Assembly: GCA_963741945.1 (NCBI GenBank)
Contig: CAVUKA010000005.1
Location: 544,001 to 608,000 of the forward strand
Direction: 5' to 3'
Length of the DNA stretch: 64,000 nt
Origin: an uncultured Gemmatimonadales bacterium
Lineage (GTDB): Bacteria; Gemmatimonadota; Gemmatimonadetes; Longimicrobiales; RSA9
Shown: in pieces, positions 29,963-64,000 of the stretch
Numbering within the stretch: the stretch's first letter is position 1
Layout of the letters: the number at the start of each line of letters is the position of its first letter
Translations under genes and position numbers: made by a program
Notes under the pieces: generated by a model
Told to the model about the DNA's origin: nothing
Databases searched by the model: none
The model's input: the letters and a program-made list of their open reading frames with translations, nothing else

Positions 29963-30931
29963 TTATCGGACCGCATTTACGGCCAGAGACTGGTCAGATA
30001 TCGCTCGGGGATGATGGCTGGAAACGAAGACCGCGATGGGCACCAGCGCCAGCGGGAGATAGGGGATCAAAACGTACGGCGATGCGAATACTCCCGCCAC
30101 GAGGACGCAGGCCACTTGCAGCCGTGGCGAACGATGCCGCAGCATGACACCCACCACTACGGGAGCCAGCACTCCCAGGAACACCGGGATCCATGGAAGG
30201 CCGAGCCAATCGCCAATAGGGGTGGTGGGCGAAAGGTTGAGACCCGCCCACCCTTGCGCCACGTGCGGCAACACCTCGGTGAGCCAATGAAGCGACGCGC
30301 GAACGAACCCGCCCGGTGAAAGTGCCGCCATTCCCACGAGGACCGACCCGGCCAAGGCGGCTGCGGCGCCAGCAAACGCGCGGCGGTCCCGAGCTGCGGC
30401 AAAGGCGAGGGGAAAAACAGCATACGGCTTGACCACGGCGACGAGGGCAAGGAGTGCGCCGCGTCGTGCGCCGGAAAGAGCCACACCCCATCCCGCCAGC
30501 GCCCAAAGCACCGGGTCTACATTGGCGAAACCCAGGCCCACGGCTGCACCGGGGAACGCCCCCGCGATGAATACCCAGGCGGCCCATCCTGATGGCGTGG
30601 CCCGCCCATGGGCGATCCTGGCCAGTGCCGCGGCAAAGGCCCAGAACGAGGCGAACAGCAGCACGGACCAGCACCGGCTGAAAGTCACGAAGGACATCCG
30701 CGGAGCCAGGGACAGCGCAGGGGCGAGCACCGGGGGATAGAGGTACCAGAAGTCCCCGTGTTCGACGACCTTGCCCTTCGACATGGGCGGATACAGCGGC
30801 TCGCCGTCCTGGATCCTCCGTTGCGCCAGCCAGTTGCTGGGGACGTCCCGATCGCTCCAGGACGGATTCATCATTTCCCGCGGCAGCATGACAACGGCGG
30901 TTGCCGCGGTGAATGCCCACGCTACCATCAT
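29963..30931 (-). CDS. GT87/DUF2029-like GT-C glycosyltransferase
   Basis: GEPLY, YLYPP, ANVD and VKPY motifs, many TMs; alternative TTG start at 30967. Confidence 0.75.
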   Translation of the reverse strand: MMVAWAFTAATAVVMLPREMMNPSWSDRDVPSNWLAQRRIQDGEPLYPPMSKGKVVEHGDFWYLYPPVLAPALSLAPRMSFVTFSRCWSVLLFASFWAFAAALARIAHGRATPSGWAAWVFIAGAFPGAAVGLGFANVDPVLWALAGWGVALSGARRGALLALVAVVKPYAVFPLAFAAARDRRAFAGAAAALAGSVLVGMAALSPGGFVRASLHWLTEVLPHVAQGWAGLNLSPTTPIGDWLGLPWIPVFLGVLAPVVVGVMLRHRSPRLQVACVLVAGVFASPYVLIPYLPLALVPIAVFVSSHHPRAISDQSLAVNAVR

Positions 30932-31035
30932 GGCCCGGCGGGCGAGCCATTCCGTGTTCAGCTTCAACTTGACTCCAGTGACCAAACGAGAAGGCTCCCG
31001 CTCGCGGATCGCGGGTGCGGACGCTCCATGGCGGA

Positions 31036-32583
31036 TCAGGTGCCGGCGCGGACCAGCAGCACAGCCACCGAATCCTCGTGGGCCACCCGCCACTGTGGTG
31101 TTTCCTTGAGGGCTTCCACCAGCGGCGCATCCGGCCGGACCAGCACCAGGGAAAAGCCGTAGTGATCCATCAATTCTTTCCAGCCCCGTTCCGCGCTGAC
31201 GATCGTGCCGTACTCCTTCACCAGATCGTCGCCGAAGAAGTCTGCCATGCTGTCGACGAACAGGCGCTGCCCCGGCCAGGCATACAGCACGTACCCACCC
31301 CAGCTGTACTGGCTGAACAGGCGTCCGCCCAGACGCGCCTCCCTGGCATATCGCACGGCCGCGGCCGGAAAGACATCCGGTGAGGGCTGGTCGGGTACGA
31401 TCGTGATCCGCTGCGTCCTTCCGTCCGTCAGCAGCAGCGCCACCAGGAGCGTCCCGACGCCGAGTCCCAGCCGCCAGCCCCGCGTGTCGGAGCGTGCGAA
31501 CTCCTCGCGCATCCGCCCCACCAGGCCGGCGTGCAGCTGCCGCACCAAGGGCGTGAGCGCGCGCGCCATCACGGGGAGCGCGAAGAGGGCGAACATCGCC
31601 GTGTTGCGACGGGCGGAGAGCGCCCCCATGAACGCCGCGGCGGTGACCAGGAGCGGCCGCCACCCGGGCCACTCCTTCTGCGCCGCCAGGCCGAGCACCA
31701 GGAGGCCGCAAACGGCCATGAACGGCAGTCCCTCGGGGGAGAAGGCGATGAGCGCCTGGAACTCGTTCACCTGCGCCACGGTCTGGCTCCCCATCCACGT
31801 CATGGCGTGCACGTGCAGCGCCCAGCCGAACGGGTTGAGGAGCGACGCCGCGAGCGCGACGACGAAAGGGGCGGCAGACGTGCGCAGCGCCGACAGCCGG
31901 GGACGTCCGGCCCTGATCTCGTCGATCCATTCCCCCGCTCCCCATGCTCCGACCATCACGGCCCCGTAAAGGAATCCGGGATGCAGGTTGGCCCAGAACG
32001 CGAACAGGAGCGAAGTCCAAAGCAGCCGGCGGCGCGACAGCAGGGCGTGAGGCAGGGCGGCGAGCGCGAGATAGGAGAACAGGTGGGGCCGCGCGATCCA
32101 GTGCGACTGGTTCAGCACGACCGCCGCGGCGCCCGTGACCAGCGCCAGCCAGGGGTCGCCGCCATCCCGCCGCACGTATGCAACCACCAGCGCCACGGCC
32201 CCGCCGATGAGCAGCGCGGCCAGCGCCACCACGCCGGCGAATCCAGCCGCCGCATGGGCCCCGGCGTATGCCACCTGGCTGAGCCATTCATAGGCGAGGA
32301 ACGGCTCTCCGGCCCGGGAGAAGGAGAACGGGTCCGCGAACCTCGGCCCATGCCCGAGGATGTAGCGGCCGATGAGGATGTGCCGGAGGAGGTCGCCGTC
32401 ACCATTGACCAGCCGCCCGTGGGCCAGGAATGCCGCTGAAGCCGAGGTCAGGGCGAACGCCATACCTACCACGGATGCCTGCTGGGGCTCACGGGCCGGC
32501 ACAGCGGCACCGGCCGGCGGTTGCGAAACGGGTGAAGCCTCCTGGCCCGCCCGGGCGGTTTCCGTCGCGCCGGGGCCGCTCAC
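31036..32583 (-). CDS. multi-TM protein, probable GT-C-fold glycosyltransferase (paralog of 34164-35687)
   Basis: DGDLLRHILIG, AYEWL, RPHLFS, WANLHPGF, LNPFG, YSWGGYVLY, FVDS; GTGA overlap with the upstream GT2. Confidence 0.75.
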   Translation of the reverse strand: MSGPGATETARAGQEASPVSQPPAGAAVPAREPQQASVVGMAFALTSASAAFLAHGRLVNGDGDLLRHILIGRYILGHGPRFADPFSFSRAGEPFLAYEWLSQVAYAGAHAAAGFAGVVALAALLIGGAVALVVAYVRRDGGDPWLALVTGAAAVVLNQSHWIARPHLFSYLALAALPHALLSRRRLLWTSLLFAFWANLHPGFLYGAVMVGAWGAGEWIDEIRAGRPRLSALRTSAAPFVVALAASLLNPFGWALHVHAMTWMGSQTVAQVNEFQALIAFSPEGLPFMAVCGLLVLGLAAQKEWPGWRPLLVTAAAFMGALSARRNTAMFALFALPVMARALTPLVRQLHAGLVGRMREEFARSDTRGWRLGLGVGTLLVALLLTDGRTQRITIVPDQPSPDVFPAAAVRYAREARLGGRLFSQYSWGGYVLYAWPGQRLFVDSMADFFGDDLVKEYGTIVSAERGWKELMDHYGFSLVLVRPDAPLVEALKETPQWRVAHEDSVAVLLVRAGT

Positions 32584-33404
32584 GGCTCCCTTCCCGCCGT
32601 CATCGGCTCCGTTCCTTTCGATGCGGGCCGGCCGGTTGGCCCGGCCACCAGGCGGCGCCCGGGCCGCTGCACCCACAGGCGAAGAAGAAAAAGGAAAGCG
32701 CGGGCGCCCGCCAGCATGGAGACCTTCGACTCGCCCACGTCGCGCCAGGCGGGAAGCGGCACCTCTACGATCCTGTCGATCCCGCTGTCCCCCCACCCCT
32801 CCTGGAGGCGGCGCAGCAGCTCGATGTCGAACGCCCAGCGCGATTTGAACGGCCGCTGGAGTGCGTGCTCCAGGGCCGATGACTTCCGCAGGAGCTTGGC
32901 ACCGCACTGTGTGTCGTATACGGGCACGCCGAGCGCCAGCGACGCCAGTGTGCCATAGGCACGCCCGGCCAGGTGGCGCAGGCCGGACCGCTGGATCTCG
33001 CGGCCCAGCATTCGAACGCGCGCGCCCATGACCACGTCCACCCCACGGCGCTCATCCAGGAGTTGATCGAACGCTTCGATCATGTCCAGCGGCGTGGCGA
33101 GATCAGCGTCCCAGTAGCCCACGCGCGACGCGCCCGCGTCGAGCGCCGTCCTGAGGCCGGCCCGAACCGCCTCTGCCTTCCCCACGTTCTGCTCCAGCGC
33201 CAGCACGCGGCAGCCGCCGGCACGGAGGCGCCCGATCCCGACGGCAAGGGCGTCCAGCGACCGGCGCGTGCCATCGGTGCTTCCGTCGTCCACGAAGATG
33301 AACGTGGGCGCGCGGGAGCCAGCGGCCGCCGCCAGGAATGCGGACGCATCCAGGCGAAGCGCCTCGTTGTAGCACGGCACGACCACCCAAGCATCACTCG
33401 CCAT
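32580..33404 (-). CDS. GT2 polyprenyl-phosphate glycosyltransferase (dolichyl-P beta-glucosyltransferase-like)
   Basis: VPCYNE, DDGSTD, GKAEAVR, DADLATP, DTQCGAKL, RWAFDIELL. Confidence 0.9.
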   Translation of the reverse strand: MASDAWVVVPCYNEALRLDASAFLAAAAGSRAPTFIFVDDGSTDGTRRSLDALAVGIGRLRAGGCRVLALEQNVGKAEAVRAGLRTALDAGASRVGYWDADLATPLDMIEAFDQLLDERRGVDVVMGARVRMLGREIQRSGLRHLAGRAYGTLASLALGVPVYDTQCGAKLLRKSSALEHALQRPFKSRWAFDIELLRRLQEGWGDSGIDRIVEVPLPAWRDVGESKVSMLAGARAFLFLLRLWVQRPGRRLVAGPTGRPASKGTEPMTAGREP

Positions 33405-34167
33405 CGGCCTGGCTCCGCCTCAGAATCGCCAACAGACTCAGCCCATGCCCCGGGAGATCGCGGCGTCCCCGCTTCAGCGCATCCACGAGCCCTGGAACCT
33501 CGCCCGTGAACACCCGTTCCAGGGCGCGGTTCACCGGCGCCCATGGCAGCCCCATATCGCTTCCTTCGCGCCCCGTGCCGCTCCCCCGCCACGCCCCGAG
33601 ACGCCGGACCATCCGCGCCAGCGGGTACAGCCGGCGATTGAATGGCGCCAGCAGGCGGACTTCTGCCGGGACGCCCGACCAGGCGTCCCAGAGCATCTCG
33701 CGGGTGTATCGCCGGTAGTGTCCGTACACCTCGTCGTGGGGGCTCCAGAGCCAGGGCCCGAACGGCACGGTCATCAGCAGGTGCGCCTCCGGGCGCATGC
33801 TGCCGATCAACCGCTCCAGGAAAGCGTGGTCATGCTCGACGTGCTCCAGGACATCGCAGAGGAGGACCAGGTCGGCCCGGCCGATCATTTCCCTGCCGGC
33901 CTCCGGAGCGGCGCCTGTTTCGAAGCTGACGCCCGGATGGGCCCGTCGCGCCAGCTGGATTGCCGTGGGCGAGCTGTCGATCCCGTGGCGGTCGTGCCTC
34001 TCGGGGAACGCACCGATATCCGCGCCCGTGCCGCACCCGACATCCACCACCACACCCCGTTCGGGCAACAGCCGCGTCCCGAGTTCCAGGATGGCCCTGC
34101 GCCGCCCCCGGAACCACCAGTGGCGCGCCTCGAGCGCGTGGTGCGTGCTGAACAGCTGTTCCTTCAT
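33394..34167 (-). CDS. class I SAM-dependent methyltransferase
   Basis: HWWFRGRR, VDVGCGTG, DVLEHV, WSPHDE...HYRRY. Confidence 0.88.
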   Translation of the reverse strand: MKEQLFSTHHALEARHWWFRGRRRAILELGTRLLPERGVVVDVGCGTGADIGAFPERHDRHGIDSSPTAIQLARRAHPGVSFETGAAPEAGREMIGRADLVLLCDVLEHVEHDHAFLERLIGSMRPEAHLLMTVPFGPWLWSPHDEVYGHYRRYTREMLWDAWSGVPAEVRLLAPFNRRLYPLARMVRRLGAWRGSGTGREGSDMGLPWAPVNRALERVFTGEVPGLVDALKRGRRDLPGHGLSLLAILRRSQADGE

Positions 34168-35687
34168 CCGCCCTCCCCGTTCTTCGCCAGCAGGACCGCC
34201 ACGCCGTCCTCGTGCACAACGCGCCAGCCGTCGGCCCCGCGGAGCGCCTCCACGATGGGCGTTCCCGGCGGGAAAAGCACGACGGAGATCCGGTTCCGGG
34301 CCAGCAGATTGCGCCAGCCGGGCCGGGCGTCCCTCAGCACGACGTAGTCGCCGATGAGCTCCGGGCCGAAGAAGTCGGCCATGCTGTCCACGAACACGCG
34401 CTGCCCCGGCCACGCGTAGAGGACGTAGCCGCCCCATGTGTACTCGCTGATCAGGCGACCGTCCAGTTGTTGACTCATGGCCACCCGGACCGCCGCCTCG
34501 GGAAACACGTGGGGCGAGAACCGGTCCGGCAGCAGCCCGGGTCCCCCGACCCGGCCCACCACGAGAAGCAGTGCCAGACCGGCCGCGGCCATCGAACCAT
34601 GGCGCGATCCTGGTCGATCCGATCGGGCGAACTCCGCGCGCATCCGGCCCAGCAGCCAGTGCGGGAGCGCCGCCATGGCGGGCGCCAGCGCGCGGGCCGC
34701 GAGGGGGAGCGCGAACAACGGAAGCAGCGTCGTGTACCGGCGTCCCATGAACGATACGGCCACCGCAATGGTGAACGGGAGCACCGCCGGCCACGGCCTG
34801 GCAGGCCGGGCGAGGGCGAGTCCGGCGGCGGCCGTTCCGGCAACAGCAAGGAACACCAGTCCGTTGATAGACAACAGGGGGAGCGGCAGGAACTCCGAGA
34901 CCCCCATGGCCGAGCCGCCTCCGCCGAGCGCAAGCGCGTGGACGTGGAGCGCCGCGCCGAAGGGGTTCAGCAGCGTGGCGGCGGAAGCGACCAGCACGGG
35001 CACGCCCCACCGCACGACGGCGCGCCCGGTCCCATCCCCGGAGCGGACGTCCTCCACGGCCATGCCCGACGACCATGCGCCGAGCATCACCAGTCCATAG
35101 AGAAACCCCGGGTGGAGGTTGGCCCACAGCGCGAACAACACCCCGAGCCACAGCGTCCGACGCGGGGACTCGATTGCGTACAGCAGCGCCGCGAGACCAA
35201 GGAAGCTGAACAGGTGGGGGCGCGCCAGCCAGTGCGGGTACGTCAGCACCACGGCAGCCGTCCCGACCATGAACGCGAGCCACGGGTCCCCCGCAGCCCG
35301 GACCCAGCGCACCACCAGCGCGAAGGATGTGGCCAGGAGCAGCGACGAGAGGACGACCACGCCAGCGAGCCCCAGCCAGCCATGGACGGCCGCAAGCAAC
35401 GCCTGACTCAGCCATTCGTACGCCAGAAACGGGTCTCCCCCTCGCGTGAATGAAAACGGATCCGCGAAGCGCGGCCCGTGCGCCAGGATATACCGGCCGG
35501 TCACGAGGTGACGGGCCAGGTCACCGTCCCCATTCACCAGCATTCCGCCGAAGCCCAGCGGGATCACGAGCGCCCAGAGAGCGAACGTGAGATCGACCAC
35601 CGACGCGCGGCCGCGCTCGCCATGGGCCGCGCCCAGCTCGGCACCGCCACGCGTGGACACGGCGGCCTCCACCGGTCCGTGCATCAC
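34164..35687 (-). CDS. multi-TM protein, probable GT-C-fold glycosyltransferase (paralog of 31036-32583)
   Basis: DGDLARHLVTG, AYEWL, RPHLFS, WANLHPGF, YTWGGYVLY; ATGA overlaps at both ends. Confidence 0.75.
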   Translation of the reverse strand: MMHGPVEAAVSTRGGAELGAAHGERGRASVVDLTFALWALVIPLGFGGMLVNGDGDLARHLVTGRYILAHGPRFADPFSFTRGGDPFLAYEWLSQALLAAVHGWLGLAGVVVLSSLLLATSFALVVRWVRAAGDPWLAFMVGTAAVVLTYPHWLARPHLFSFLGLAALLYAIESPRRTLWLGVLFALWANLHPGFLYGLVMLGAWSSGMAVEDVRSGDGTGRAVVRWGVPVLVASAATLLNPFGAALHVHALALGGGGSAMGVSEFLPLPLLSINGLVFLAVAGTAAAGLALARPARPWPAVLPFTIAVAVSFMGRRYTTLLPLFALPLAARALAPAMAALPHWLLGRMRAEFARSDRPGSRHGSMAAAGLALLLVVGRVGGPGLLPDRFSPHVFPEAAVRVAMSQQLDGRLISEYTWGGYVLYAWPGQRVFVDSMADFFGPELIGDYVVLRDARPGWRNLLARNRISVVLFPPGTPIVEALRGADGWRVVHEDGVAVLLAKNGEGG

Positions 35688-36829
35688 GGTCCTGCAGAGG
35701 CGCTTGCAGTGGCACCGACCGCAGCCTCAGCCGCGGCCGCGCTCCCCCCGCCCGTCGCCCGTCCCTTCTTCCGCCCGACCAGCACGGCCGCGAACACCAG
35801 CCCGATGGCCAGATATCCGTTCCAGCAGAGCGGCGAGAACAGCAGCGACGCCAGCAATACCGCGGTCAGGTGCAGCCGGGTGTCCCACCGCCGCGTGAGC
35901 CACCAGGCGCCGAATGGCGCCGCCACGGAGGCGGCAGTCAACCACACCCTCCACCCCGGCGACAGCGGCCCTGACTCGTAGTGCGAGACGCCCGTCCAGC
36001 GGGCCACCCGCAGCACCAGGAACGATAGCGACCAGTTCGTGGACAGGAACGCGCCCTGGCCGAGCGCCGGCGGGATCGCGGTGAACCACTGCTGCGACAC
36101 GCGGAAAAGCCGCGCCGGACCCAGTGCGGCGACACTCACCAGCACCACGCCCACCGCGGCCCAGACGGCTCCTCGCACCACCCGCCACCGCTCCCGCCAC
36201 ACCGCCGCGATCACCGCCCATACGGCGTACGGTTTCACCGCCGTCGTGAGGACCAGCCCCGCCCCGCGGAACCGCGGATACGCGATGGCCCCGGCGAAGA
36301 ACACCCACAGAAGGGGATCGATGTTGAACAGCAGGAAGAACAGCAGGGCTCCCGGCATCAGCACAACCAGGCCATGCCAAAAGAAGAATCCTCCGACGCT
36401 CCACCGCCCCCGTGCAATCCGCGCCAGGAGCGCCGCGAACGCCCAGAAGGAGAACGCCACCACGAGGAACCACGCTCGCTGGAAGGTGACCAGCTCCGTG
36501 CGGGGCAGCAGTGCCACCACGGACGCCAGGGGAGGCAGGTACGGGCTGTTGTCCATCGGGTATCCGGTCGAGCCGGACCCCCCCATCACATCCGGTCCGA
36601 ACCCCGGCATCCGCCGGTACAGCTCCTCCGCTCCTGCACGTACCCGCTCCGACTGGTACCATACCTGTGGCGAGTCCACATTGTCCGGACCGGGGTGGCG
36701 GATGCTGTCCGCCAGCCACCACGCTTGAAAGGGGATGATCAGGGCGCCGACCAACAGAAAAGGAAGGCGCACATAAAATGAAGGCGTTCTGGACCTGCTT
36801 CCGTTGACGGTGCCTGCACGGATGATCAT
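35684..36829 (-). CDS. GT87/DUF2029-like GT-C glycosyltransferase
   Basis: SPYLPP, FNID, VKPY, NWSL and SPLCW motifs; paralog of 29963-30931. Confidence 0.75.
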   Translation of the reverse strand: MIIRAGTVNGSRSRTPSFYVRLPFLLVGALIIPFQAWWLADSIRHPGPDNVDSPQVWYQSERVRAGAEELYRRMPGFGPDVMGGSGSTGYPMDNSPYLPPLASVVALLPRTELVTFQRAWFLVVAFSFWAFAALLARIARGRWSVGGFFFWHGLVVLMPGALLFFLLFNIDPLLWVFFAGAIAYPRFRGAGLVLTTAVKPYAVWAVIAAVWRERWRVVRGAVWAAVGVVLVSVAALGPARLFRVSQQWFTAIPPALGQGAFLSTNWSLSFLVLRVARWTGVSHYESGPLSPGWRVWLTAASVAAPFGAWWLTRRWDTRLHLTAVLLASLLFSPLCWNGYLAIGLVFAAVLVGRKKGRATGGGSAAAAEAAVGATASASAGP

Positions 36830-36835
36830 TGCCGG

Positions 36836-37930
36836 TCAGGAGGTCTTCCGTGGGGCGCCGCTGATCGACCGGGAACGCCAGCCGCCACCAAGGTCAAGTC
36901 GGGGCCGACCCGTACCGGGGATGGCGTCCGGCCGCCCCCACCCGGTTCGCTCCCGCGTAGCTCGGCCGGCAAGTGCCCACCCGAGGAGCCCGACCAGGAT
37001 GCCCGCCAGGGCGTCCGCAGCATAGTGCTCACCAAGAAAGACCACGGCCACGCTCATCAAGGCGACATAGCCCATTCCTAGCCACTTCAGAGAACGGTGC
37101 AGATTGGTCAGGGCAAATGCCGTCACCGTTGCGAGCACGAGGTGGACGGAAGGCATTGCCGCCACGTCATTCGAGGAAGCGCGATAACCTGCCTCCATGA
37201 TCTGGGGCACGCTCGGGTACATGACGTCCCAAAGTATCCGGCGCACGGGCGCTATTGCGCCGGCGTTCGCGGCCATCCACGGCGGCACGGTTGGGAACGC
37301 GGTGTGCCACACCAGGGCGATCCCGAAACCCGACAACAGGGCCAAAACCACGCGGGTCGCCGACCTGTTCAGAGCAAGTGACGCGGCAAGCACAAGAGGG
37401 AAGGCAAAATGAAACGAAAGATACGTGATGCTCATCAGCACGTCCAACAACCTGGCCTGGAAGTGCTCCTGAAGCAGCACCGTCGGGACTGTCCCGAGCC
37501 CCAGCACCCGATCCACGAAGATCGGATACTGCGTGCGCCACGGCGCCACCGCGTCCGCCAGCCCGCGCAGTGAAGCGAAGGCCGCATATCCGAGAGCCCA
37601 CAGCCCGAACAGCTTCACGCGGATCGAACGCGTCCACAGGAGCCATAGGCCCAAGGGGACGAGCAGAATGGCGTTCCCCGGACTCAGCACGAAGAACAGG
37701 GGGCTGATGCCGATGACGAGAAGGACGAAGAGCCCGATGGCGGCCCCGAGCGCGCCGAGGACGCTTCGCAGGGCCGCCAGCAATCCCGCCCCGGTCACAC
37801 TACGCCCGCGGCCACCGGGGACGAATCGGGCGACCACGCTCCCCCGGGAAGGAGGCTCTGAACCGGGCCTTTCAGATCGGTATCGGCCGCCGGCAGCGTT
37901 CTCAAGCGGAGTTGTTGGGTGCAAAGCCAT
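36836..37930 (-). CDS. PAP2-superfamily membrane protein (Aur1/inositol phosphorylceramide synthase-like); start uncertain
   Basis: FPTVPPW, AAMPSVH and GEHYAADALAG motifs. Confidence 0.8.
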   Translation of the reverse strand: MALHPTTPLENAAGGRYRSERPGSEPPSRGSVVARFVPGGRGRSVTGAGLLAALRSVLGALGAAIGLFVLLVIGISPLFFVLSPGNAILLVPLGLWLLWTRSIRVKLFGLWALGYAAFASLRGLADAVAPWRTQYPIFVDRVLGLGTVPTVLLQEHFQARLLDVLMSITYLSFHFAFPLVLAASLALNRSATRVVLALLSGFGIALVWHTAFPTVPPWMAANAGAIAPVRRILWDVMYPSVPQIMEAGYRASSNDVAAMPSVHLVLATVTAFALTNLHRSLKWLGMGYVALMSVAVVFLGEHYAADALAGILVGLLGWALAGRATRERTGWGRPDAIPGTGRPRLDLGGGWRSRSISGAPRKTS

Positions 37931-38059
37931 GCCGGCCGCGTTTGCTGCCCCCCTCCGTTGCCTGGCGCCAGGCGCGCACGGATCCTCTCGATTTGCTGAC
38001 ATAAGATCACTGATGGCCGGCGTCCCACCGCGAATACTCGGGCACAATTCGAAGCCGAG

Positions 38060-38230
38060 TCACAACAGAGAAGCGGAAACCAGGTCACGGTGGAGCCCCG
38101 CCGCGCTCTCCAACAAGCTTACATTGACAGGCCCCGGGAACCAGCCAAACCACGCGCACCCGAAGCCGTACAGGAAGGCCAGTATGGCCAGAGACCCGGC
38201 AAACGCATATCTCTCAGGGCGGCTCTTCAT
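38060..38230 (-). CDS. 56-aa single-TM ORF or gene fragment
   Basis: Manually translated MKSRPERYAFAGSLAILAFLYGFGCAWFGWFPG...; ATGA overlap with the upstream gene's stop. Confidence 0.35.
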   Translation of the reverse strand: MKSRPERYAFAGSLAILAFLYGFGCAWFGWFPGPVNVSLLESAAGLHRDLVSASLL

Positions 38231-39822: not shown

Positions 39823-40277
39823 CCTTCCCCTGCAACAAGCGGCCGTGCCCACGTGAAGGCGTTGTTAAGAACAAAGTTGAGGACCAGCATGGCTGCGATC
39901 GCAGTGGCATTGGCCAACATCAGCCAACCCATGCCCCACCACGCGGTGAGTGTCGTGACAGTTGCGACAGTTCCGGTGAGCGTGAGCAAGGATATGGACT
40001 GAAACCGAAGGAGCCGCTGAGCCCAGCCGTTCCGGGTAGTGCGCCCTCTGAACGTGAACGTATCGTTGCCGACGAAATTGAACAGGATCGCAGTCTCCGT
40101 GGCGGTGGCGGAACTCAGAATGACCGGCCATCCGACAGCGTGCACGCAGACCCAGAGAACGGCCATGTTGACAGTTGTCCCAGTCCCGCCCACCAGAGCA
40201 TAGCGAACGAAAGTCCGAAGATCCTCAAAGCTGTGAGGGAGCCGGTATTTGGTCGGGGTATTACACGCGACAGTCAT
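39819..40277 (-). CDS. GtrA family protein (polyprenyl-P-sugar flippase)
   Basis: FVRYALVGG.GT.VN, NF.GNDTFTF and LNFVLNNAFTW; four TMs. Confidence 0.88.
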   Translation of the reverse strand: MTVACNTPTKYRLPHSFEDLRTFVRYALVGGTGTTVNMAVLWVCVHAVGWPVILSSATATETAILFNFVGNDTFTFRGRTTRNGWAQRLLRFQSISLLTLTGTVATVTTLTAWWGMGWLMLANATAIAAMLVLNFVLNNAFTWARPLVAGEG

Positions 40278-41947: not shown

Positions 41948-42120
41948 GCGGCGCCATGCCCGCTTCGGGGTCCTGAGCCTCGCCTTCGAACTTCCGGGCG
42001 CAGACCCGAGCCGCCGAAGAGCCGGGGATCGAGAAGCTTGCGCGTGCAGGCGAGAAAGGGAACGATTACTTTGTGTTTCGAAACTTCATACGCGCCACAG
42101 CGAAATTGCCGGAGCCCAGC

Positions 42121-43812: not shown

Positions 43813-43822
43813 CTTCTCGCGC

Positions 43823-48007: not shown

Positions 48008-48023
48008 GGGCACATCGATTGCC
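48008..48023 (+). promoter_or_regulatory. sigma54 -24/-12 promoter
   Basis: GGGCAC-ATCGA-TTGCC, same form as the element at 22553. Confidence 0.65.
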
Positions 48024-48088
48024 CCCTCTCGGGCCCGGCCGCAGGAGCGTGGGCGGCCGCCACCGACCCCGGACAACCGAGAAGCTCG

Positions 48089-51781: not shown

Positions 51782-51782
<1 letters not shown>
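50046..51782 (+). CDS. membrane sensor histidine kinase (HAMP-HisKA-HATPase)
   Basis: Two TMs, DEVGRL (HAMP), SHEIRNPL, NLLVNALDA, DNGPG, FEPFFTTK, GIGL. Confidence 0.93.
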
Positions 51783-53157
<1,375 letters not shown>

Positions 53158-53161
<4 letters not shown>

Positions 53162-56935: not shown

Positions 56936-57669
56936 GCGTCATCCTCCCGGCGCGCGACGAAGCGGGCACCATCGCCGAGGTGGTGCGCCGGGTCGCGGCT
57001 TCCGTGGAGCGACGGGGCTGGAGCTACGAGATCGTGCTCGGAGACTCCGCGTCGTCGGATGACACCGTCGCCCGTGCCCTGGAAGCCGACCCCCGCCTGC
57101 GGGTCGTGCGCGCCGAACGCCCCGGAAAGGGATTCGCCCTCACACGGGCGTTCCTGCACGCACGCGGCCAGATCCTTGCCTTCATGGACAGCGACCTCGA
57201 CCTCGCCCCGGAAGACCTTCCCGCCCTCATCGACGCCGTTCTCGCCGGCGCCGCCTGCGCCGCCGGCGCCAAGACCGGCGCCGCCCTGGCGTCACGACCA
57301 TTCTTCCGTCGCATCGCGAGCAGGGCTGTGAACGTGGCCGCCCGCTTGGCGCTGCGCAGCGGCATCAGCGATCATCAGACCGGAATGAAGGCGTTCGATG
57401 GGGCGGCGCTCCGGGCCGTCCTCCCCGAAGTCATGGAAGCCGGGTGGCTCTGGGACACCGAAGTCCTATGGCGCCTCGGCCAGAGGGGTTCGGCCGTGGT
57501 CCAGGTTCCCGTGGGCCTCTCGGGAGCGCGGGACGGCGCCTTCCGGAGCTGGCCGGACAGGATCACAGGGCTCGCGCAGGTCTTGTCGCTGTACGCACGC
57601 CTCTCCCGCGAGCCGGCACGGAACCCCGCGCATGCCGATGCGGTAGCGTCGGGCCGATCCCGCAGGTAG
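56896..57669 (+). CDS. GT2 polyprenyl-phosphate glycosyltransferase
   Basis: SVILPARDE, PGKG, FMDSDL, DHQTGMK, WLWDTEVL. Confidence 0.88.
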   Translation: MADRIVEIGHPLVSVILPARDEAGTIAEVVRRVAASVERRGWSYEIVLGDSASSDDTVARALEADPRLRVVRAERPGKGFALTRAFLHARGQILAFMDSDLDLAPEDLPALIDAVLAGAACAAGAKTGAALASRPFFRRIASRAVNVAARLALRSGISDHQTGMKAFDGAALRAVLPEVMEAGWLWDTEVLWRLGQRGSAVVQVPVGLSGARDGAFRSWPDRITGLAQVLSLYARLSREPARNPAHADAVASGRSRR

Positions 57670-57671
57670 GA

Positions 57672-59852
57672 ATGCCGCCCCGGGCGGACCGTTCGGACTC
57701 GCGTCCCGCAGGTGCCGTCCCGTCTTCGCGCCCGGCACACGGGTCGTTGATCGGCATTTCCCTCCTCTTCGCCCTCGTTGCGGTGGCGTACGGCACCGGA
57801 GTCCGGCCACTTCTGCACCCCGGACCTCCAGTGTTCGGCGATCTCGGCGGCCATATGGTGCCGATCCGTGAGGGAGTGGAAGCGCTCCGCCAGGGTCACC
57901 TCCGGGGATGGTCCTACAGCTGGTTCGGCGGATTCCCCCGATTCTACTTCTATTTCCCGCTGCCCTCCATCCTCGTGGCGGCGCTGTCGATGGTGCTGGG
58001 GCTCGGCCGGGCCGCGATGCTGGGCGTGCTCGTCGGGCCGCTGCTCCTGCCGCTCGCGGCCGCATCCCTGGTTACCGCATCGGGCGGCACACGGCGAGGC
58101 GCGATCCTGGTCGCAGCGGGATCGGCGGTCTTCCTCCTCTCCCGCTCGCTCGGGCTGGACGGGGGAACGCTCGAATCGGCCATCGTCGGTGAGTTCTCGT
58201 ACGGCATCGCCATGCCTCTCGCGCTCTTCTACCTGGCGTCGCTCCCCGAGCTGCTGCGCGGACGCCGCCTCACCCGGTTCGCGCTCTCGGCCGTGCTGCT
58301 CGCGCTCACGGCCCTTTCGCACGTCCTCGTGACCGCCGTCGCCATCGTGGCTTCCCTAGCCCTGCTCCGGCGCCGGCGGGACCTGATGACCGCGGCCGCC
58401 ACCTGGGTCTTCGCCTTCCTCCTCACCGCCTGGTGGAGCGTGCCTTTCCTGTGGTTCGCCGGCGAGATGGGGGATCTGGCCTGGAAACCGTTGTCGCCCG
58501 CGCAGCTTTCTGCCGCGTTGATCGAAGGAATCCCCCTCGGGGTCCTGGGCGTTCTCGCGTTCACGTGGCGAAGCCCGGCCCTTGGTGAACGGTTCTACCG
58601 CCTCGCAGCCGTGTTCGCGGTCCTGGCCCTCGTCCCTCTCCTGGTCCCTCACACCCCCTTCTACTCCGGGCGGCTCCTCCCCTTCGGGATGTGGGCAGCG
58701 TCCGCGCTCGCCGCTGTCGCCGCATGGCAGTGTCTCCAGGCTCTCGCGGCTCGCCGCCACCTCGTCCGCACGGGGATCGGGCTCCTGGCATTGGCGGCCG
58801 CCCTCGTCGTTGCGGTCCTCCGTCCCCCCCCACGCGGGCTCGCCGAAGCCAACTTCGGCGGCATGCGGGCGGCCGTCGACTACCGCGACTGGCTGTCCCT
58901 GCAACAGCGTGTCCAGCGGCTCCCCGCGGGAGCGGTTGCGGAGGCTTCGCTCTTCGAGCGCGACGCGGCGCGCCCGCGCTTCATCTCCGATGGCGGGCTT
59001 CTGCAACTGGAGCGGCTCACCGGCCACCGGACGGTCGGGGGGACGTGGCGGGAATCCAGCCCCAGAGGTTCATACGAGTTTCGCGCGCGCGGACACCTCC
59101 GCGCGGACACCTCCTCCATGACCACCGGGTTCCCGGCGCGCAGTCCGGATCGCGGCCTCGGGGTCCGGCAGGCCCGCCTGCTCGGGGCCCGCTTCCTGTT
59201 CGTCTCCGGATCCACCACCGCGCTCGATACCATCTCCTGGCCCAGTACCCGAGAGATCGCCCGGGACTCCACCTGGCGGTTGTTCGAGATCGCCGATGCG
59301 GCCATCGCGCGCACGCTCCGCCGCTTCACGCCCACCCCTGCAGACTCGTTCGCCCTGGCAGCCGCCCGCTGGTTCGAGGACGGGGGTCGGAGTGCTCTCC
59401 CCGTCCGGATCGACGCCGCCGAAGCGCCGACCACGGGGGGGCTGCCGGAGCCCGCGCGAATCGACGAGTCCGCCATCACCATGAGCCCGGAGGAAATCCT
59501 GATCCCGGGTGCGGTGCCCGGCCAGCCCCTGCTGGTTCGGCTGTCCTTCTTCCCGAACTGGAAGCTCGCAACGCCGGGACGCGGGCCCTACCGCGCCGCA
59601 CCCAACGACATGCTGATCATCCCCCGCTCCGAGACCATCCGCCTGGTCTGGCGCCCCGGCTGGCCCGAACGCGCCGGCCTTGCCGCGAGTGTCGGGTCTG
59701 CTCTCGTCCTGCTCCTCCTCCTCGGCACGGCCCTGGCCCGCCGTCGCCGCCGCCCACCCTCGCCGTCCTCCTCCCCGCTCCGCCCCCATGGAACGCTCGC
59801 CGCGGGCTCCCCCCGTCACGCGGTCGAAGACCCTGAGGAACTGTGCCTGTGA
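57672..59852 (+). CDS. PTPS-related/YfhO-like GT-C membrane protein
   Basis: GDLGGH, GWSYSWFGGFPRFYFYFPLP, GEFSY, ALSH, WWSVPF and SFFPNW motifs. Confidence 0.75.
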   Translation: MPPRADRSDSRPAGAVPSSRPAHGSLIGISLLFALVAVAYGTGVRPLLHPGPPVFGDLGGHMVPIREGVEALRQGHLRGWSYSWFGGFPRFYFYFPLPSILVAALSMVLGLGRAAMLGVLVGPLLLPLAAASLVTASGGTRRGAILVAAGSAVFLLSRSLGLDGGTLESAIVGEFSYGIAMPLALFYLASLPELLRGRRLTRFALSAVLLALTALSHVLVTAVAIVASLALLRRRRDLMTAAATWVFAFLLTAWWSVPFLWFAGEMGDLAWKPLSPAQLSAALIEGIPLGVLGVLAFTWRSPALGERFYRLAAVFAVLALVPLLVPHTPFYSGRLLPFGMWAASALAAVAAWQCLQALAARRHLVRTGIGLLALAAALVVAVLRPPPRGLAEANFGGMRAAVDYRDWLSLQQRVQRLPAGAVAEASLFERDAARPRFISDGGLLQLERLTGHRTVGGTWRESSPRGSYEFRARGHLRADTSSMTTGFPARSPDRGLGVRQARLLGARFLFVSGSTTALDTISWPSTREIARDSTWRLFEIADAAIARTLRRFTPTPADSFALAAARWFEDGGRSALPVRIDAAEAPTTGGLPEPARIDESAITMSPEEILIPGAVPGQPLLVRLSFFPNWKLATPGRGPYRAAPNDMLIIPRSETIRLVWRPGWPERAGLAASVGSALVLLLLLGTALARRRRRPPSPSSSPLRPHGTLAAGSPRHAVEDPEELCL

Positions 59853-61919
59853 GCCGGAACACCGCGTGGATCGCCGCTGCGCTCGCTCCGCTGCCGCGGC
59901 GATCCTCTACGGTATCGGCACGCTCCCCCTCCTCCACCCTGAGACTCCCGTCCTCGGCGACCTCGGCGGGCACATGGCCCCGATCCGGGAGTCCATCGAG
60001 TCGCTGCGCCGCGGCGGGCTGCGGGGCTGGTCCTACTCCTGGTTCGGTGGATACCCGCGATTCTACTTCTATTTCCCGCTTCCCACCCTTGCCATCGCCG
60101 GGCTGGCCAGCGTCCTGCCACTCGCCGTAGCGGTGATGCTGGTGGTGCTGGCCGGGCCGTTCCTCACGCCCCTGGCCGCGGGGGCGCTGGTCGTGGCCAC
60201 GGGGGGCACGAGCACCGGCGCGGTGGTCGTGGCCACGGGATCGGCGTTCTTCCTCCTGTCGCATGCTCTCGGCCTGGCGGGCGGAACGCTGGAGGCGGCG
60301 GTCGTGGGCGAATTCTCCTACGGGCTCGCTTTCCCGCTCGGGCTTCTGTACCTCGCCTCGCTGCCGCCACTGTTCCGGCGCCGGACCGCGTCGGCGTTCG
60401 CGCTTTCGTCTCTCCTCCTGGCCGGGACGGCGCTGTCCCATGTCCTCGTTACGGGCGTCGTCGTCCTGGCCTCGACGGTGCTTGCCCGGAAGCGCGACGG
60501 GTGGTGGCTGATCGGGAGCTGGGTCGCTGCGTTCTGCGTTTCCGCGTGGTGGACGCTCCCGTTCCTCTGGTATCGCGGCGAGATGAGCTCGCTCCACTGG
60601 GGTCCGCTACCCGCACCACAGGTCGATGCGCTTCTGTACGAGGGAGTGCCGGCGGCGGTGCTGGCGGTATTGGCGTTCGCCTGGCGCGGCCCGCACGTGG
60701 GGCGGGGGTTCTATCGCGTAGCAGGCGTGTTCATCGCGGCTTCGATGATCCCCCTGGTGGTTCCCGATTCCCCGATCTACCGGGCCCGCCTCATGCCCTT
60801 CGCTTTCCTGGCGATCAGCGCGCTGGCCGTACTGGCGGTCTTGCAGTCGGTCGAGGCCATGGCTGCGCGACGGCATCGAGGCCGCGCCGCCGTGGGCGTC
60901 CTCGGGCTGGGCGCCCTTCTGGGCCTGGTTGCCCTGAGAGACACGCCGCGCCGTGCGGCAGAAGTGATATTCGGCGGTACGGCCTCCGCCGCGGACACCA
61001 CATCGTGGCGGGCGCTTCTGGAGGAGCTGGACCGCCTGCCGCCCGGGGCCGTGCTGACGGCGGCGCGTTTCGAGCCGGACGGTGGCGGCGAGCGCACGGC
61101 GCGCCTCCTCGGCGATGGCGGATTCCGGCACCTCGCCGGATGGACGGGTCGGCGTATCATCGGCGGGCTGTGGCAGGAATCCGGCCGCAGCAGCCCGTAC
61201 GTCACCCGTGCGCGCGCCAACCTCGCGGGGGGTGGAACCACGCTGGCTGCCGCCGGCGACGAAGGAGTCCCGGATGCGGCGCTGGGGGTCCGTCAGGCGC
61301 GCCTCCTCGGGGCGCGGTTCATCGTGCTGGCCGGCGACCCGCGATTCCTCGCCCGCGCTATTCTCCCGGGCACACTGGAGTTGGCCCGCGACTCGATCTG
61401 GCGCCTGTACGAGATCCACGATGCGGCCGTCGCGCTCGGTCCGGGCCTCCTGCGACCGGTCCCCAGTGACTCTCTCCCCCTCGCCGCAGCCGCCTGGTTC
61501 CGGTCCGGCGGCCGTGAACCGCTCCCCGTGTCCGCTCCCGGCAGCACGGTGCCGGCGGCCGCGAGCGGAGCTCCCGTCCGGGTTCCGGAATCGGCCGTGC
61601 GCCTCCTGCCGGGAGAGATCAGGGTGACGGGGCGCACCCCGGTGTCCCGATGGTGCTCCGGCTGTCGTACTTCCCGAACTGGCGCCTGGCGTCGCCGGGT
61701 GTCGGCCCGTTCCGGGCCGCGCCAAGCCATATCCTCGTGGTCCCCGCCTCCCGTGAGGTCCGCCTGGTCTGGCGCCCCGGCACGGCCGAGACGATCGGCA
61801 CGCTCACGAGCATGATCGCCGCGGCGCTGCTCCTGGCGGCTCTCTCGATCCAGATGATGCGCCGATCCGGTCCGGACTCCACCCCCTTCCCGATCGTTCC
61901 CAGGCGTGTCGCATCGTGA
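59849..61919 (+). CDS. PTPS-related/YfhO-like GT-C paralog; -1 frameshifts at about 59886 and 61631
   Basis: GTGA-coupled start VSRNTAWIAAAL, core in the next frame (GDLGGH, GEFSY), tail MVLRLSYFPNW in the third frame, all collinear with the paralog. Confidence 0.7.
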
Positions 61920-61944
61920 CGGGCGCGTGTCCCGATGCGCGACA
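61907..61944. promoter_or_regulatory. candidate UAS site(s) upstream of flp
   Basis: TGTCCCGATGCGCGACA (61928-61944) plus a weaker site beginning TGTCGCA 21 bp upstream (61907). Confidence 0.55.
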
Positions 61945-62017
61945 AACCAGCCGTTCCCGCGATCGACCGGACACACGAAAGTCCAGCAATGGCGCGGAAA
62001 ACCTGCGATGGCACGCG

Positions 62018-62033
62018 CGGCACGGCTCCTGTA
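62018..62033 (+). promoter_or_regulatory. possible variant sigma54 promoter of flp
   Basis: CGGCAC-GGCTC-CTGTA: good -24 element, -12 reads GT instead of GC. Confidence 0.35.
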
Positions 62034-62176
62034 ACCAGTACCGTGCGAAGGCGGGTCGAGCGACCTGCCGGAACGGGGAGATTCCCCTATCGGGCGCCGG
62101 TTCGGGCGCCCGCCCCGATCGCCGCCCGACACTCGGGCAGTTACTCACCCGGTCCCGGTAGGGACGAGGAGGAACG

Positions 62177-62368
62177 ATGAAGGACCTGTGGAACAAGTTC
62201 CTGGCGGACGAGTCCGGCCAGGGCCTCGTGGAGTACGTGCTCATCATCGCGCTCGTGGCCATCGGTCTCGTGCTGGTGCTGACCGTCTTCCGCAACGCCA
62301 TCGGCAAGATCTTCGACACGGTCTCCGAGACGCTGAACACCGCGCCGAACAACGCCTACGGCACCTGA
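62177..62368 (+). CDS. flp: Flp family (Tad) pilin
   Basis: GAGGAGG RBS; DESG|QGLVEY cleavage site and Flp motif, hydrophobic helix, 63 aa. Confidence 0.95.
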   Translation: MKDLWNKFLADESGQGLVEYVLIIALVAIGLVLVLTVFRNAIGKIFDTVSETLNTAPNNAYGT

Positions 62369-62396
62369 TCGGCGCTGGCGGCTGGCGCAAACGTGG

Positions 62397-62424
62397 GCGG
62401 GTGGGGCGCTGGTGCCCCACCCGC
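62397..62424 (+). terminator. hairpin after flp (terminator or mRNA-stabilising stem)
   Basis: GCGGGTGGGGC / GCCCCACCCGC 11-bp perfect stem, no U-tract. Confidence 0.5.
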
Positions 62425-62461
62425 ACGCGCGCCGGAGGGAACCCCACGCGAACCGAAGCGA

Positions 62462-62995
62462 ATGTTCTCGACACTCCTAGCGATACCCGTTACTGTTGTC
62501 CTGATGCTCGGCGCCCTCACGGACGTCCGGGCTCGACGGGTGCCCAACGCCCTCGTCCTCGCGGGTCTCCCCCTCGCCCTGCTGGCCAGTGCCGGCGCCG
62601 GTGGGGTGGCGAGCATCCCGGGGGCGCTGCTGGGCGGGGTCATCGCGTTCGCGCTGGGCTTCGCCGCTTTCGGCATCGGCGCCATCGGCGGCGGGGATGC
62701 CAAGTTCCTGGTGGTCGGAGCGCTGGCCGTGGGCTGGAGCGGGCTGGTCCCGTACCTCCTGGCCTTCGGAGCGCTGGGTGGCGTGGTTGCGATTGCGGAG
62801 ATCGTTCGCAGGCGCGCGGGGATCGAGGCCACGGTCATGACGCTCGACCTCGCGAAGCACGCCGCCACGCTGGGCGGCAGCGGTCATCGCGCCCGGCTGG
62901 GCGATGAAGGGCGACTGACGGTTCCGTACGCCGTGGCCGTGGCGGGAGCCGCGGCTCTTACTCTCTTCACCCCCTACGCGCAATGGCTCCATTGA
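62462..62995 (+). CDS. cpaA: A24 prepilin peptidase (CpaA/TadV)
   Basis: TDVRARRVPN, IGGGDAK and VPYAVA motifs. Confidence 0.9.
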   Translation: MFSTLLAIPVTVVLMLGALTDVRARRVPNALVLAGLPLALLASAGAGGVASIPGALLGGVIAFALGFAAFGIGAIGGGDAKFLVVGALAVGWSGLVPYLLAFGALGGVVAIAEIVRRRAGIEATVMTLDLAKHAATLGGSGHRARLGDEGRLTVPYAVAVAGAAALTLFTPYAQWLH

Positions 62996-63462
62996 TCAGG
63001 TCGCTGAAGCGGCGGGCTGCGCCGCAGCTGAAGGGGAGACGTCCCGGTCAGGCGGTGGTGGAGTTCGCGCTGATCGCGCCGATCCTGCTGCTCATCGTCA
63101 TGGGGATGATCGACTTCGCCCGCGCCTGGAGCGCGGCCCACGTCATCGCCGACGCGGCGAGGGAAGGGGCCCGCTGGTCCGCCGTGGCCAACAACTCCAC
63201 GCCGGACTCGGTCCTGCTACACGTGGGCCAGGCGCTTCAGAACGGGCGGCTGGACGCCAGCGGCCTGAGCCTCGGCTGCGGCACGCCGCCGTGCCTGGAC
63301 GTGGACGACAGCGGCGGCGGCGGCGGCGGGGCCACGGGGCAGCCGAGCACGGTGTATCTCGAGTACCCCTACCGGTTCAACCTGGTGGGGCCATTCCTCC
63401 GCTGGACCACGGGCCAGGGCACGATCACGCTGAAGAGCCGCATCGTGATGCGGAACGAATAG
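62983..63462 (+). CDS. tadE: TadE/TadG family pseudopilin
   Basis: GQAVVEFALIAP...AAREGAR motif. Confidence 0.9.
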   Translation: MAPLIRSLKRRAAPQLKGRRPGQAVVEFALIAPILLLIVMGMIDFARAWSAAHVIADAAREGARWSAVANNSTPDSVLLHVGQALQNGRLDASGLSLGCGTPPCLDVDDSGGGGGGATGQPSTVYLEYPYRFNLVGPFLRWTTGQGTITLKSRIVMRNE

Positions 63463-63475
63463 GAGAAGGACCCTC

Positions 63476-64000
63476 ATGAAGCAACGACGCGTCATCGTCA
63501 TCCTCCTGCTCGCGCTGGCTGCGGCCGCGGTGGCCGGGTTCTCGACGCTCCGTTACCTGTCCACCCGCCCCGCCACGTCGGTGGCGGTGCGCCCGGACCG
63601 CACCGCCCAGGTGGTGGTGGCCGCGCGGCCGCTGCCGGTGGGCGCGCTTCTCACACGGGAAGACCTGAACGTGATCGAGTGGCCGGCCAGCACGGTGCCG
63701 GACAACTACGTAGCGGTTCCGGCCGATGCGGTGGGCCGGGGGCTCATGAGCCCCGTCCACATGAACGAGCCGATCCTGGCCAGCGACCTGGCCGAGAAGG
63801 GGAGCGGCGCGGGGCTGCCGATCACGATCCCGGAGGGGAAGCGTGCGCTCAGCATCCGCGTCAACGAAGTGGTTTCGGTGGCCGGGTTCGTGATCCCGTA
63901 CACGCGGGTGGACGTGCTGCTGAGCCTGGATCAGGGCGGGGAGCCGCGCACGCAGATCATCCTCCAGGACATGACCGTCCTCGCCGCCGGGCAGGTGTCC
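63476..64000 (+). CDS. cpaB: Flp pilus assembly protein CpaB/RcpC; 3'-truncated by window
   Basis: Manually translated: VVVAARPLPVG (SAF domain), IPEGKRALSIRVNEVVSVAGFVIPYTRVDVLL. Confidence 0.92.
   Translation, partial: MKQRRVIVILLLALAAAAVAGFSTLRYLSTRPATSVAVRPDRTAQVVVAARPLPVGALLTREDLNVIEWPASTVPDNYVAVPADAVGRGLMSPVHMNEPILASDLAEKGSGAGLPITIPEGKRALSIRVNEVVSVAGFVIPYTRVDVLLSLDQGGEPRTQIILQDMTVLAAGQVS

Follow-up and report, generated by a model that had tools for sequence, protein, structure and literature searches.

STT3-like enzymes encoded beside a Tad pilus locus in a Gemmatimonadota genome as candidate pilus glycosyltransferases

Tad/Flp pili are widespread adhesion and colonisation organelles. 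A report of 2000 (Inoue et al.) called the Flp1 pilin of A. actinomycetemcomitans glycosylated, with no enzyme named in the part of the source available (PMC6182317). Our search of the literature on Flp, Tad and Flp1 glycosylation and on STT3 and WWDYG, with subscription journals mostly outside it, likewise returned no named enzyme and no GT-C or oligosaccharyltransferase gene in tad loci. Which enzymes could modify such a pilus is the question raised by a 64,000-nucleotide stretch of DNA (the window, meaning the whole stretch analysed) from an uncultured Gemmatimonadales bacterium (GenBank assembly GCA_963741945.1, contig CAVUKA010000005.1, positions 544,001 to 608,000). The window carries the start of a tad operon and nine candidate GT-C-type membrane glycosyltransferases from five families, here called A, F, B, E, H, J, K, L and M. 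We put the probability at roughly 0.5 that STT3-like enzymes of this locus, working without sequon recognition, use polyprenyl-phosphate-linked donors to glycosylate a Tad pilus component in the periplasm, probably the pilin Flp. Comparative support for a Tad role is confined to four of the nine, namely J, K, B and E, because linkage to tad genes is kept in other genomes for the J and B/E families and not for L/M, the GT87 pair (A and F) or H. The features that carry the argument are these:

53215-54954, plus strand: J, STT3/AglB-like GT-C protein with HVDFG replacing WWDYG (AlphaFold2 model with Foldseek, and profile match)
54951-56935, plus strand: K, J paralogue whose reading frame is broken by a 1-base shift (identity to J; Pfam STT3 score under the cut-off)
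31036-32463, minus strand: B, multi-transmembrane protein of the B/E family (no Pfam or NCBIfam match; matches the B/E family profile; 54% identity to E)
34164-35684, minus strand: E, multi-transmembrane protein of the B/E family (no Pfam or NCBIfam match)
62177-62368, plus strand: flp, Flp prepilin (Pfam Flp1_like 34.5 bits, Flp_Fap 31.3 bits)

The AlphaFold2 (AF2) model of J has a predicted local distance difference test score (pLDDT) of 93.7, and its 16 best Foldseek matches are all eukaryotic STT3 (yeast, human) or archaeal AglB (A. fulgidus), with TM scores of 0.63-0.72. At the sequence level, the J-family profile matches the C-terminal domains of A. fulgidus AglB-S (3vgp, E 2e-4; 3vu0, E 6e-4), and archaeal AglB-S domains are the sole significant PDB sequence matches of J (E<=0.001). 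Four residues, D31 in loop 1, D146, E325 and R383, are invariant across 30 family members, and D146 and E325 align to the yeast STT3 catalytic stretches 'YDNE' and 'vsEhqP'. The WWDYG motif of AglB-S faces 'vDlGP' in the J family (HVDFG in J), with the D and G alone kept. Members of the family are about 600 residues long, and some have been named 'Stt3' by the Joint Genome Institute (JGI). Curated profiles do not reach them: J has no Pfam match even at E<=10 and scores 30 bits against a cut-off of 450 for TIGR04154, and K scores 23.7 bits for Pfam STT3, under its cut-off of 24.5. Because of the fold matches, the invariant catalytic residues and the presence of HVDFG in the place of WWDYG, we conclude from the model that J has STT3 architecture and probably STT3 chemistry, without the sequon-reading motif. 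For K, we infer a GT-C/STT3 fold from its 39-49% identity to J.

The second family, B/E, is very large: its profile finds 33,715 cluster representatives at E<=1e-3, 23,783 at 1e-10 and 8,387 at 1e-30, out of 1.84 billion. In E, a D53-x-D55 motif directly follows the first transmembrane helix, and E264, R316 and W417-G-G-Y are conserved. When the C-terminal third to half of B/E was aligned by hhalign to a deep J alignment, the match had probabilities of 87.8% and 85.4% and paired R316 of E with R383 of J and TWGGY with HVDFG. The nearest named Atlas clusters of B/E are GT-C families, at 0.92 only. B and E are thus probable STT3-like GT-C proteins, by a remote homology that depends on alignment depth. 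A relation of B/E to the L family was also considered and rejected (hhalign probability 0.2%), and a predicted complex of E with Flp scored 0.02, which counts neither for nor against binding.

We then asked what lies beside J homologues elsewhere, using one genome per species, 207 relatives and an 8-sequence J alignment, and kept 79 loci. Tad genes in these loci were detected by tblastn with the Tad proteins of the window and of the region downstream of it (E<=1e-4, coverage >=0.4, flank <=10 kb). At least one tad gene was found in 27 of the 79 loci and at least two in 26; of the loci spanning at least 18 kb, 18/40 had a tad gene. The tad-linked J loci span seven phylum-level groups, named from record titles: Gemmatimonadota, Alphaproteobacteria, 'delta' proteobacteria, Acidimicrobiia, Syntrophomonas, Pirellulales and Verrucomicrobiota. 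Their gene orders vary (J-GT2-flp-cpaA-cpaB-cpaC, flp-J(-J)-cpaB, J-cpaB, tadC-J and divergent flp|J), and the congener of this bacterium, genome G001, keeps the order J-K-GT2b-L-M-flp. Among the 124 open reading frames (ORFs) immediately beside J homologues were 13 GT2 proteins, seven flavin adenine dinucleotide (FAD)/amine-oxidase proteins, six PAP2_3 proteins, five methyltransferases and four TadG-like proteins. These families are enriched there, and the first four are the same accessory families as those of the minus-strand operon of the window, described below; homologues of I, the FAD oxidoreductase of that operon, adjoin J homologues in 12/79 loci. In two Syntrophomonas metagenome-assembled genomes (MAGs), a PRK07208-type FAD oxidoreductase lies directly beside the J homologue (L047:11747-13147 and L083:11805-13199). 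The oxidoreductases of this genome and of the Syntrophomonas MAGs are 53% identical, unusually high for such distant phyla, which suggests joint transfer. Tandem J pairs occur in loci L020, L039, L042, L068 and L081.

The linkage of the B/E family to tad is closer. From 570 metagenome relatives we kept 80 loci, 44 of which carry tad genes; the proportion was 25/30 for loci of at least 12 kb. The usual order, on one strand, is E-flp-cpaB-cpaC-cpaE-cpaF-tadB-tadC. In a phylum sample, an even draw of 151 genomes including this one, B/E occurs in 26 genomes and RcpC/CpaB in 27: 21 genomes have both, five B/E only, six RcpC only and 119 neither. The two lie on the same contig in 18 of the 21 genomes that have both, at 2-3 kb in ten, at 8-16 kb in seven and at 28-33 kb in this genome. 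In phylum relatives, E is divergent from flp-cpaA-tadE-cpaB-cpaC-tadG-cpaE-cpaF-tadB-tadC, with a methyltransferase beside E in six and a GT2 in three. These regions around E identify an E-methyltransferase-GT2 core as the usual neighbour of flp in the phylum, and in this genome the core has been moved from flp by about 26 kb of inserted genes, including J-K-GT2b-L-M. As a control we used PMT_2, which is present in 131/151 genomes. Among the best 150 of 589 PMT_2 matches, 34 lie in RcpC-positive genomes, and by hand count none of these 34 falls within 20 kb of RcpC. The denominators include two genomes flagged as unpublished, G097 and G026, whose contribution is limited to two PMT_2 matches; B/E, J and RcpC have no match in them. 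Judging by the sizes of genomes and loci, we estimate that roughly 1-2% of random genes would fall within 10 kb of a tad locus. Four B/E genes stand in tandem beside a sigma-54 activator in two loci (L131:5453-11455 and L160:8740-14790), and tandem pairs occur in L180 and L188; repeated duplication of J and B/E enzymes seems common.

The initial annotation had labelled J 'STT3-like', a label that its model as STT3/AglB supports, and had named GT-C folds and conserved tad linkage as points to check. The fold holds for the models of J and L and for the Pfam GT87 matches of A and F; H stays below threshold, and B/E reach it by remote homology only. Linkage in relatives likewise holds for part of the set, the J and B/E families, and fails for L/M, GT87 and H. 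For L/M, which had been called PTPS-related, the name stands only through distant homologues: PF10131 is carried by 4/18 L homologues, and L itself has no direct Pfam match at E<=10. The L-family profile gave chance matches only against the PDB. The AF2 model of L (pLDDT 82) has Foldseek matches that are all GT-C, namely AftD, STT3, PglB, DPY19 and ArnT. L/M are present in only 2/41 relatives, this genome (G000) and G001. A and F pass the Pfam GT87 (PF09594) cut-off of 25 with 48.6 and 30.8 bits. H remains under Pfam cut-offs (PMT_2, PF13231, 19.6 bits vs 26.1; GT87, 18.6 bits), and its nearest Atlas clusters, found as language-model neighbours, are PMT_2/ArnT at 0.99, which is a lead only.

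Genes in the window were called from third-position GC and frame plots, translations and a listing of start codons; third-position GC was used because the window has a G+C content of about 70%. The calls place the candidates in two divergent operons. The minus-strand operon runs from 41764 to 29963 in the transcription order I, GtrA, H, G, F, E, D, C, B, A and lies 20-32 kb upstream of flp. The plus-strand operon, J-K-GT2b-L-M, ends before flp with a 257-bp gap after M. About 11 kb separates the two operons and encodes a 579-residue membrane protein, an ABC transporter, an M50 protease, a KaiC-like ATPase, a histidine kinase and a sigma-54 activator (Pfam). The remaining features are:

29963-30985, minus strand: A, GT87-family GT-C protein (Pfam GT87 48.6 bits; start uncertain, TTG at 30985 or ATG at 30931)
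32580-33404, minus strand: C, GT2 glycosyltransferase (Pfam Glycos_transf_2 56.5 bits)
33394-34167, minus strand: D, S-adenosylmethionine (SAM)-dependent methyltransferase (Pfam Methyltransf_23, E 1e-12)
35684-36829, minus strand: F, GT87-family GT-C protein (Pfam GT87 30.8 bits)
36836-38047, minus strand: G, PAP2_3 phosphatase-like membrane protein (Pfam PAP2_3 83 bits; start uncertain)
38227-39822, minus strand: H, PMT_2/ArnT-like GT-C candidate (Pfam scores under the cut-offs, Atlas neighbours)
39819-40277, minus strand: GtrA-like small membrane protein, candidate flippase or partner (Pfam GtrA_DPMS_TM 84.2 bits)
40274-41764, minus strand: I, FAD-dependent oxidoreductase, first gene of the minus-strand operon (NCBIfam PRK07208.1-4, 703 bits)
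50046-53161, plus strand: histidine kinase and sigma-54 activator, the genes immediately upstream of J (Pfam)
56896-57669, plus strand: GT2b, GT2 of the polyprenyl-phosphate glycosyltransferase type (Pfam 72.9 bits)
57672-59852, plus strand: L, membrane protein of predicted GT-C fold with a C-terminal beta-rich domain, distantly related to PF10131 (AF2 model with Foldseek)
59866-61919, plus strand: M, paralogue of L, frameshifted (identity to L)
62393-62995, plus strand: cpaA (Pfam)
62983-63462, plus strand: tadE (Pfam)
63476 onward, plus strand: cpaB (Pfam); the operon runs past the end of the window

The gene calls and paralogue pairs (J/K, 39-49% identity; L/M, 52-56%; A/F, 34%; B/E, 54%) bear out the inventory first proposed for this region, namely nine GT-C candidates, two GT2 proteins, GtrA, a methyltransferase and a PAP2 protein, and they agree that J-K, GT2b and L-M lie directly upstream of flp-cpaA-tadE-cpaB. 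The description as two cassettes was right in content; the cassettes are separate, divergent operons about 11 kb apart, and the FAD oxidoreductase I had been overlooked. The three-component module recognised there also stands: a polyprenyl-phosphate GT2 (GT2b), GtrA and GT-C proteins are all encoded, in two operons, with the parts about 17 kb apart. The best PDB matches of GT2b are dolichol-phosphate-mannose synthase (DPMS; 5mlz, E 4.4e-16) and ArnC (about 1e-11); C has no PDB sequence match at E<=1e-3. The tad operon continues downstream of the window with cpaC, a tadG-like gene, cpaE, cpaF, tadB, tadC and a DUF192 gene (Pfam). The Tad/Flp locus is complete, with Flp, prepilin peptidase, CpaB/RcpC, secretin, CpaE, the CpaF ATPase, TadB and TadC all matched by Pfam, and the genome has one RcpC match only.

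Flp is the nearest and most constant neighbour. From the prepilin motif, its cleavage is predicted after ...DESG. The Flp tail, DTVSETLNTAPNNAYGT, is rich in Ser, Thr and Asn and includes an L-N-x-A-P-like stretch conserved in the phylum. A classical N-glycosylation reading was dropped, given that few Flp proteins beside J or E have sequons. The C-terminal residues of Flp (Ser in 37/54 beside E; Asn in 18/47 beside J) were also considered as evidence and rejected, because the sequences are closely related and Tad genomes of the phylum without B/E also have Flp ending in GGS. In two Acidimicrobiia loci (L034:4151-6390 and L068:5749-6919), flp genes stand in arrays of four not far from a J homologue, and their products all end in Asn; the Flp proteins of L068 carry N-X-S sequons, unlike most others.

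How far this arrangement resembles systems already described can be judged from four comparisons. With STT3, AglB and PglB (GT66), J shares the overall fold, a membrane part and a C-terminal domain, together with the acidic loop-1 residues, D146, E325 and R383, and the C-terminal part of B/E aligns to J at 85-88% probability when the J alignment is deep. It differs in that WWDYG is replaced by HVDFG in J and TWGGY in E, that scores against the curated STT3 and TIGR04154 profiles stay under their cut-offs, that J and B/E are about 500-600 residues long and without partner subunits, and that the neighbouring candidate substrate has no sequon; the donor, too, is probably a monophosphate-linked sugar made by a DPMS-like GT2. 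With the archaeal N-glycosylation of pilins and archaellins by AglB, the likeness lies in the PDB matches of J to AglB-S and in the proposed archaeal origin of the pilus: the available parts of two sources state that Tad pili are thought to derive from archaea (PMC10710030) and that AglB glycosylates archaeal pilins (PMC5131992). Here, in contrast, there is neither sequon nor WWDYG.

TfpW, itself a GT-C protein, and TfpO/PilO of P. aeruginosa type IVa pili offer a parallel in gene arrangement, a membrane glycosyltransferase encoded beside the pilin gene. In the loci compared here the enzyme gene is kept beside the pilin gene as E-flp (metagenome loci and phylum genomes), J-GT2-flp and flp-J-cpaB. 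The pilus belongs to the Tad/Flp class, however, and its pilin, about 50 residues long, lacks a globular domain; the enzymes are of other families, and no protein scanned has a Wzy_C match. The P. aeruginosa glycan decorates the pilus surface and protects against pilus phages, according to the available part of bioRxiv 10.1101/150227, whereas the present system is a predicted one. The GtrA/GtrB/GT-C and ArnC/ArnEF/ArnT systems share with the window a polyprenyl-phosphate GT2, a GtrA-family protein and GT-C enzymes. Those three-component systems have one GT-C protein, whereas here two operons encode nine from five families, with an extra FAD oxidoreductase, PAP2 protein and methyltransferase. 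The targets of the known three-component systems are O-antigen, lipid A or teichoic acids, and these systems are not known to modify pili.

Beyond the gene content, the modelled folds of J and L and the kept linkage of the J and B/E families to tad, we infer the scheme that follows: each enzymatic step, the acceptor and any part played by A, F, H, L or M. The cytoplasmic GT2 proteins, GT2b of DPMS/ArnC type and C as a second, would charge polyprenyl phosphate with a sugar. Candidates for tailoring this sugar or its carrier are I (FAD oxidoreductase), D (methyltransferase) and G (PAP2 protein). GtrA would help the donor reach the periplasmic face. There, J/K and B/E would attach the sugar to a Tad substrate, likeliest the exposed C-terminal tail of Flp or a minor pilin, and A and F (GT87), H (PMT_2-like), L and M could extend or vary the glycan. 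The linkage chemistry is expected to be unlike classical N-glycosylation because J and B/E lack the WW of WWDYG and Flp lacks an N-X-S/T sequon.

A number of observations weigh against glycosylation of the Tad pilus by these enzymes. On the enzyme side, none of 41 B/E members has a Pfam match and neither B nor E an NCBIfam match; the B/E profile found no meaningful sequence match in the PDB, where its hits, such as antibody chains and a designed repeat protein, were due to chance; and against the shallow 8-sequence J alignment the hhalign probability of B/E falls to 3.1%. On the genomic side, the 28-33 kb between B, E and cpaB in this genome is the largest distance observed, linkage to tad elsewhere is seen for L/M in 0/79 J loci and 0/80 B/E loci and for GT87 and H in 0-1/79 and 0/80; L/M, the GT87 pair and H appear to be local additions. 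Shared ancestry among the genomes, which are thus not independent samples, makes the counts look stronger than the evidence behind them; they are descriptive rather than a statistical test. On the acceptor side, the Flp of the window has no N-X-S/T sequon, and only a minority of the Flp proteins beside J or E homologues have one; Flp tails are similar in Tad genomes of the phylum with and without B/E; and, in the available part of the report, the Tad pilus of C. crescentus lacks any density attributable to glycosylation (PMC10710030).

Two of the enzyme genes are also broken as assembled, K by a frameshift of 1 base near 55622 and M by a single base near 61630-61640, within a C-run stretch. 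The K orthologue in G001 reads in one frame, and a contig of depth 3 from an independent public DNA run (X1, in which 0.21 of sampled words were present) contains a single additional base after 55622 that puts K back in frame. For K, our reading is thus either an error of the assembly or variation between strains. In the G001 assembly, M, tadE, the kinase and the FAD oxidoreductase are broken at other places, and these frameshifts in other genes of the same region suggest indel-prone assemblies; this genome and G001 comprise 8 and 6 contigs, respectively.

The main rival explanation is that the enzymes are tied to the Tad system and their target is not the pilin: an adhesive polysaccharide, a lipoglycan or an envelope glycan produced along with the pilus (the initial annotation likewise allowed for a co-regulated polysaccharide), or another periplasm-exposed Tad part such as the secretin, CpaB or pseudopilins. 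Nine GT-C enzymes together with PAP2, FAD oxidoreductase and GtrA resemble a polymer pathway more than a one-step protein modification, the lack of sequons in Flp fits such a target, and 4 of the 124 ORFs that adjoin J homologues encode TadG-like proteins. Pilin-modifying genes of P. aeruginosa adjoin pilA, however, so that the commonest arrangement found here, with E immediately before flp, counts against a non-pilin target; likewise, searches with the window's own proteins, which set their reach, turned up no polysaccharide export genes alongside E or J in the loci compared. We regard this explanation as possible and yet somewhat unlikely. It is harder to believe, and in our view improbable, that J/K and B/E act as general oligosaccharyltransferases on many periplasmic or surface proteins and came to lie near tad through joint horizontal transfer. 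J does have a full STT3 fold with its catalytic residues, its patchy distribution (2/151 phylum genomes, yet many phyla) suggests transfer, and 52/79 J loci, many of them short, have no tad gene in the available flank, which also tells against a dedicated pilus role. A general enzyme would not readily account for the tight co-occurrence of B/E and Tad in the phylum (21 genomes with both, five with B/E only, six with Tad only), for a linkage kept while gene orders differ between lineages, or for the missing sequon-binding WW.

Accidental adjacency, with the minus-strand cassette modifying lipopolysaccharide or another envelope glycan, we consider very improbable. That cassette is here a separate divergent operon 20-32 kb from flp, and G001, searched by tblastn at 1e-5, has no A or D and one B/E copy, with H, G and GtrA not detected. 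Set against this, the E-methyltransferase-GT2 core adjoins flp in most phylum relatives examined, E lies inside tad operons in metagenome loci, and the PMT_2 control has no such linkage. Accident is disfavoured for B/E and J; for A, F, G, H and I it is a live alternative.

Taking the glycosylation of a Tad pilus component as the preferred reading, two families that lie beside flp or cpaB in many lineages, one of STT3 fold and one large and without a curated Pfam or NCBIfam match, become concrete candidate genes for it. If pilin modification without a sequon is indeed their role, the known range of the STT3 superfamily would be extended. This would also matter for adhesion, for how phages interact with pili and for the archaeal ancestry proposed for Tad pili. 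A bolder version holds that J and B/E are the missing Flp-pilin glycosyltransferases, a very large bacterial branch of STT3/AglB that lost sequon reading and travels with Tad operons across phyla, possibly since the acquisition of Tad from archaea, and that it was expanded here, plausibly under phage pressure, into a nine-enzyme, glycan-diversifying island. As a whole we think this version unlikely and offer it as speculation.

The histidine kinase and sigma-54 activator upstream of J are a possible regulator pair. Homologues of the activator (an enhancer-binding protein) or the kinase adjoin flp or STT3-like genes in L039, L013, L044, L131, L160, L172 and L173. The sigma-54 pattern TGGCAC-N5-TTGC, with up to two mismatches, has no site before J or flp and is not enriched, with 36 matches in the window vs 59 expected from shuffles. 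An exact match to the -24/-12 consensus lies at 13486-13500 on the plus strand, 55 bp before an ORF starting at 13555, and one-mismatch sites lie at 22553-22567 (plus), before a gene at 22626, and at 48008-48022 (plus), at the start of the KaiC-like ORF. A scan of 52000-64000 for sigma-70 promoters and terminators returned 0 promoter-like and 2 terminator-like sites, below shuffles, and is uninformative on operon limits.

Several neighbouring genes are of interest in their own right. The DUF192 gene lies just after tadC in this genome (L089:9575-10021) and follows tadC also in L020, L024, L044, L111, L172, L175, L176, L178, L181, L184, L186 and L187; it looks like a conserved extra member of Gemmatimonadota-like tad operons. 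KaiC-like ATPase genes flank the region, one at 47999-49642, upstream of the kinase and activator, and one about 4 kb downstream of tadC (L089:12078-13586). At 42073-43812 on the plus strand, the 579-residue protein combines about 10 membrane helices with a coiled, Arg-rich central part, and 43787-44164 (plus) encodes a 125-residue membrane protein; neither has a Pfam or NCBIfam match. These two proteins head the ABC-transporter operon and are kept in G001 at 74% and 86%.

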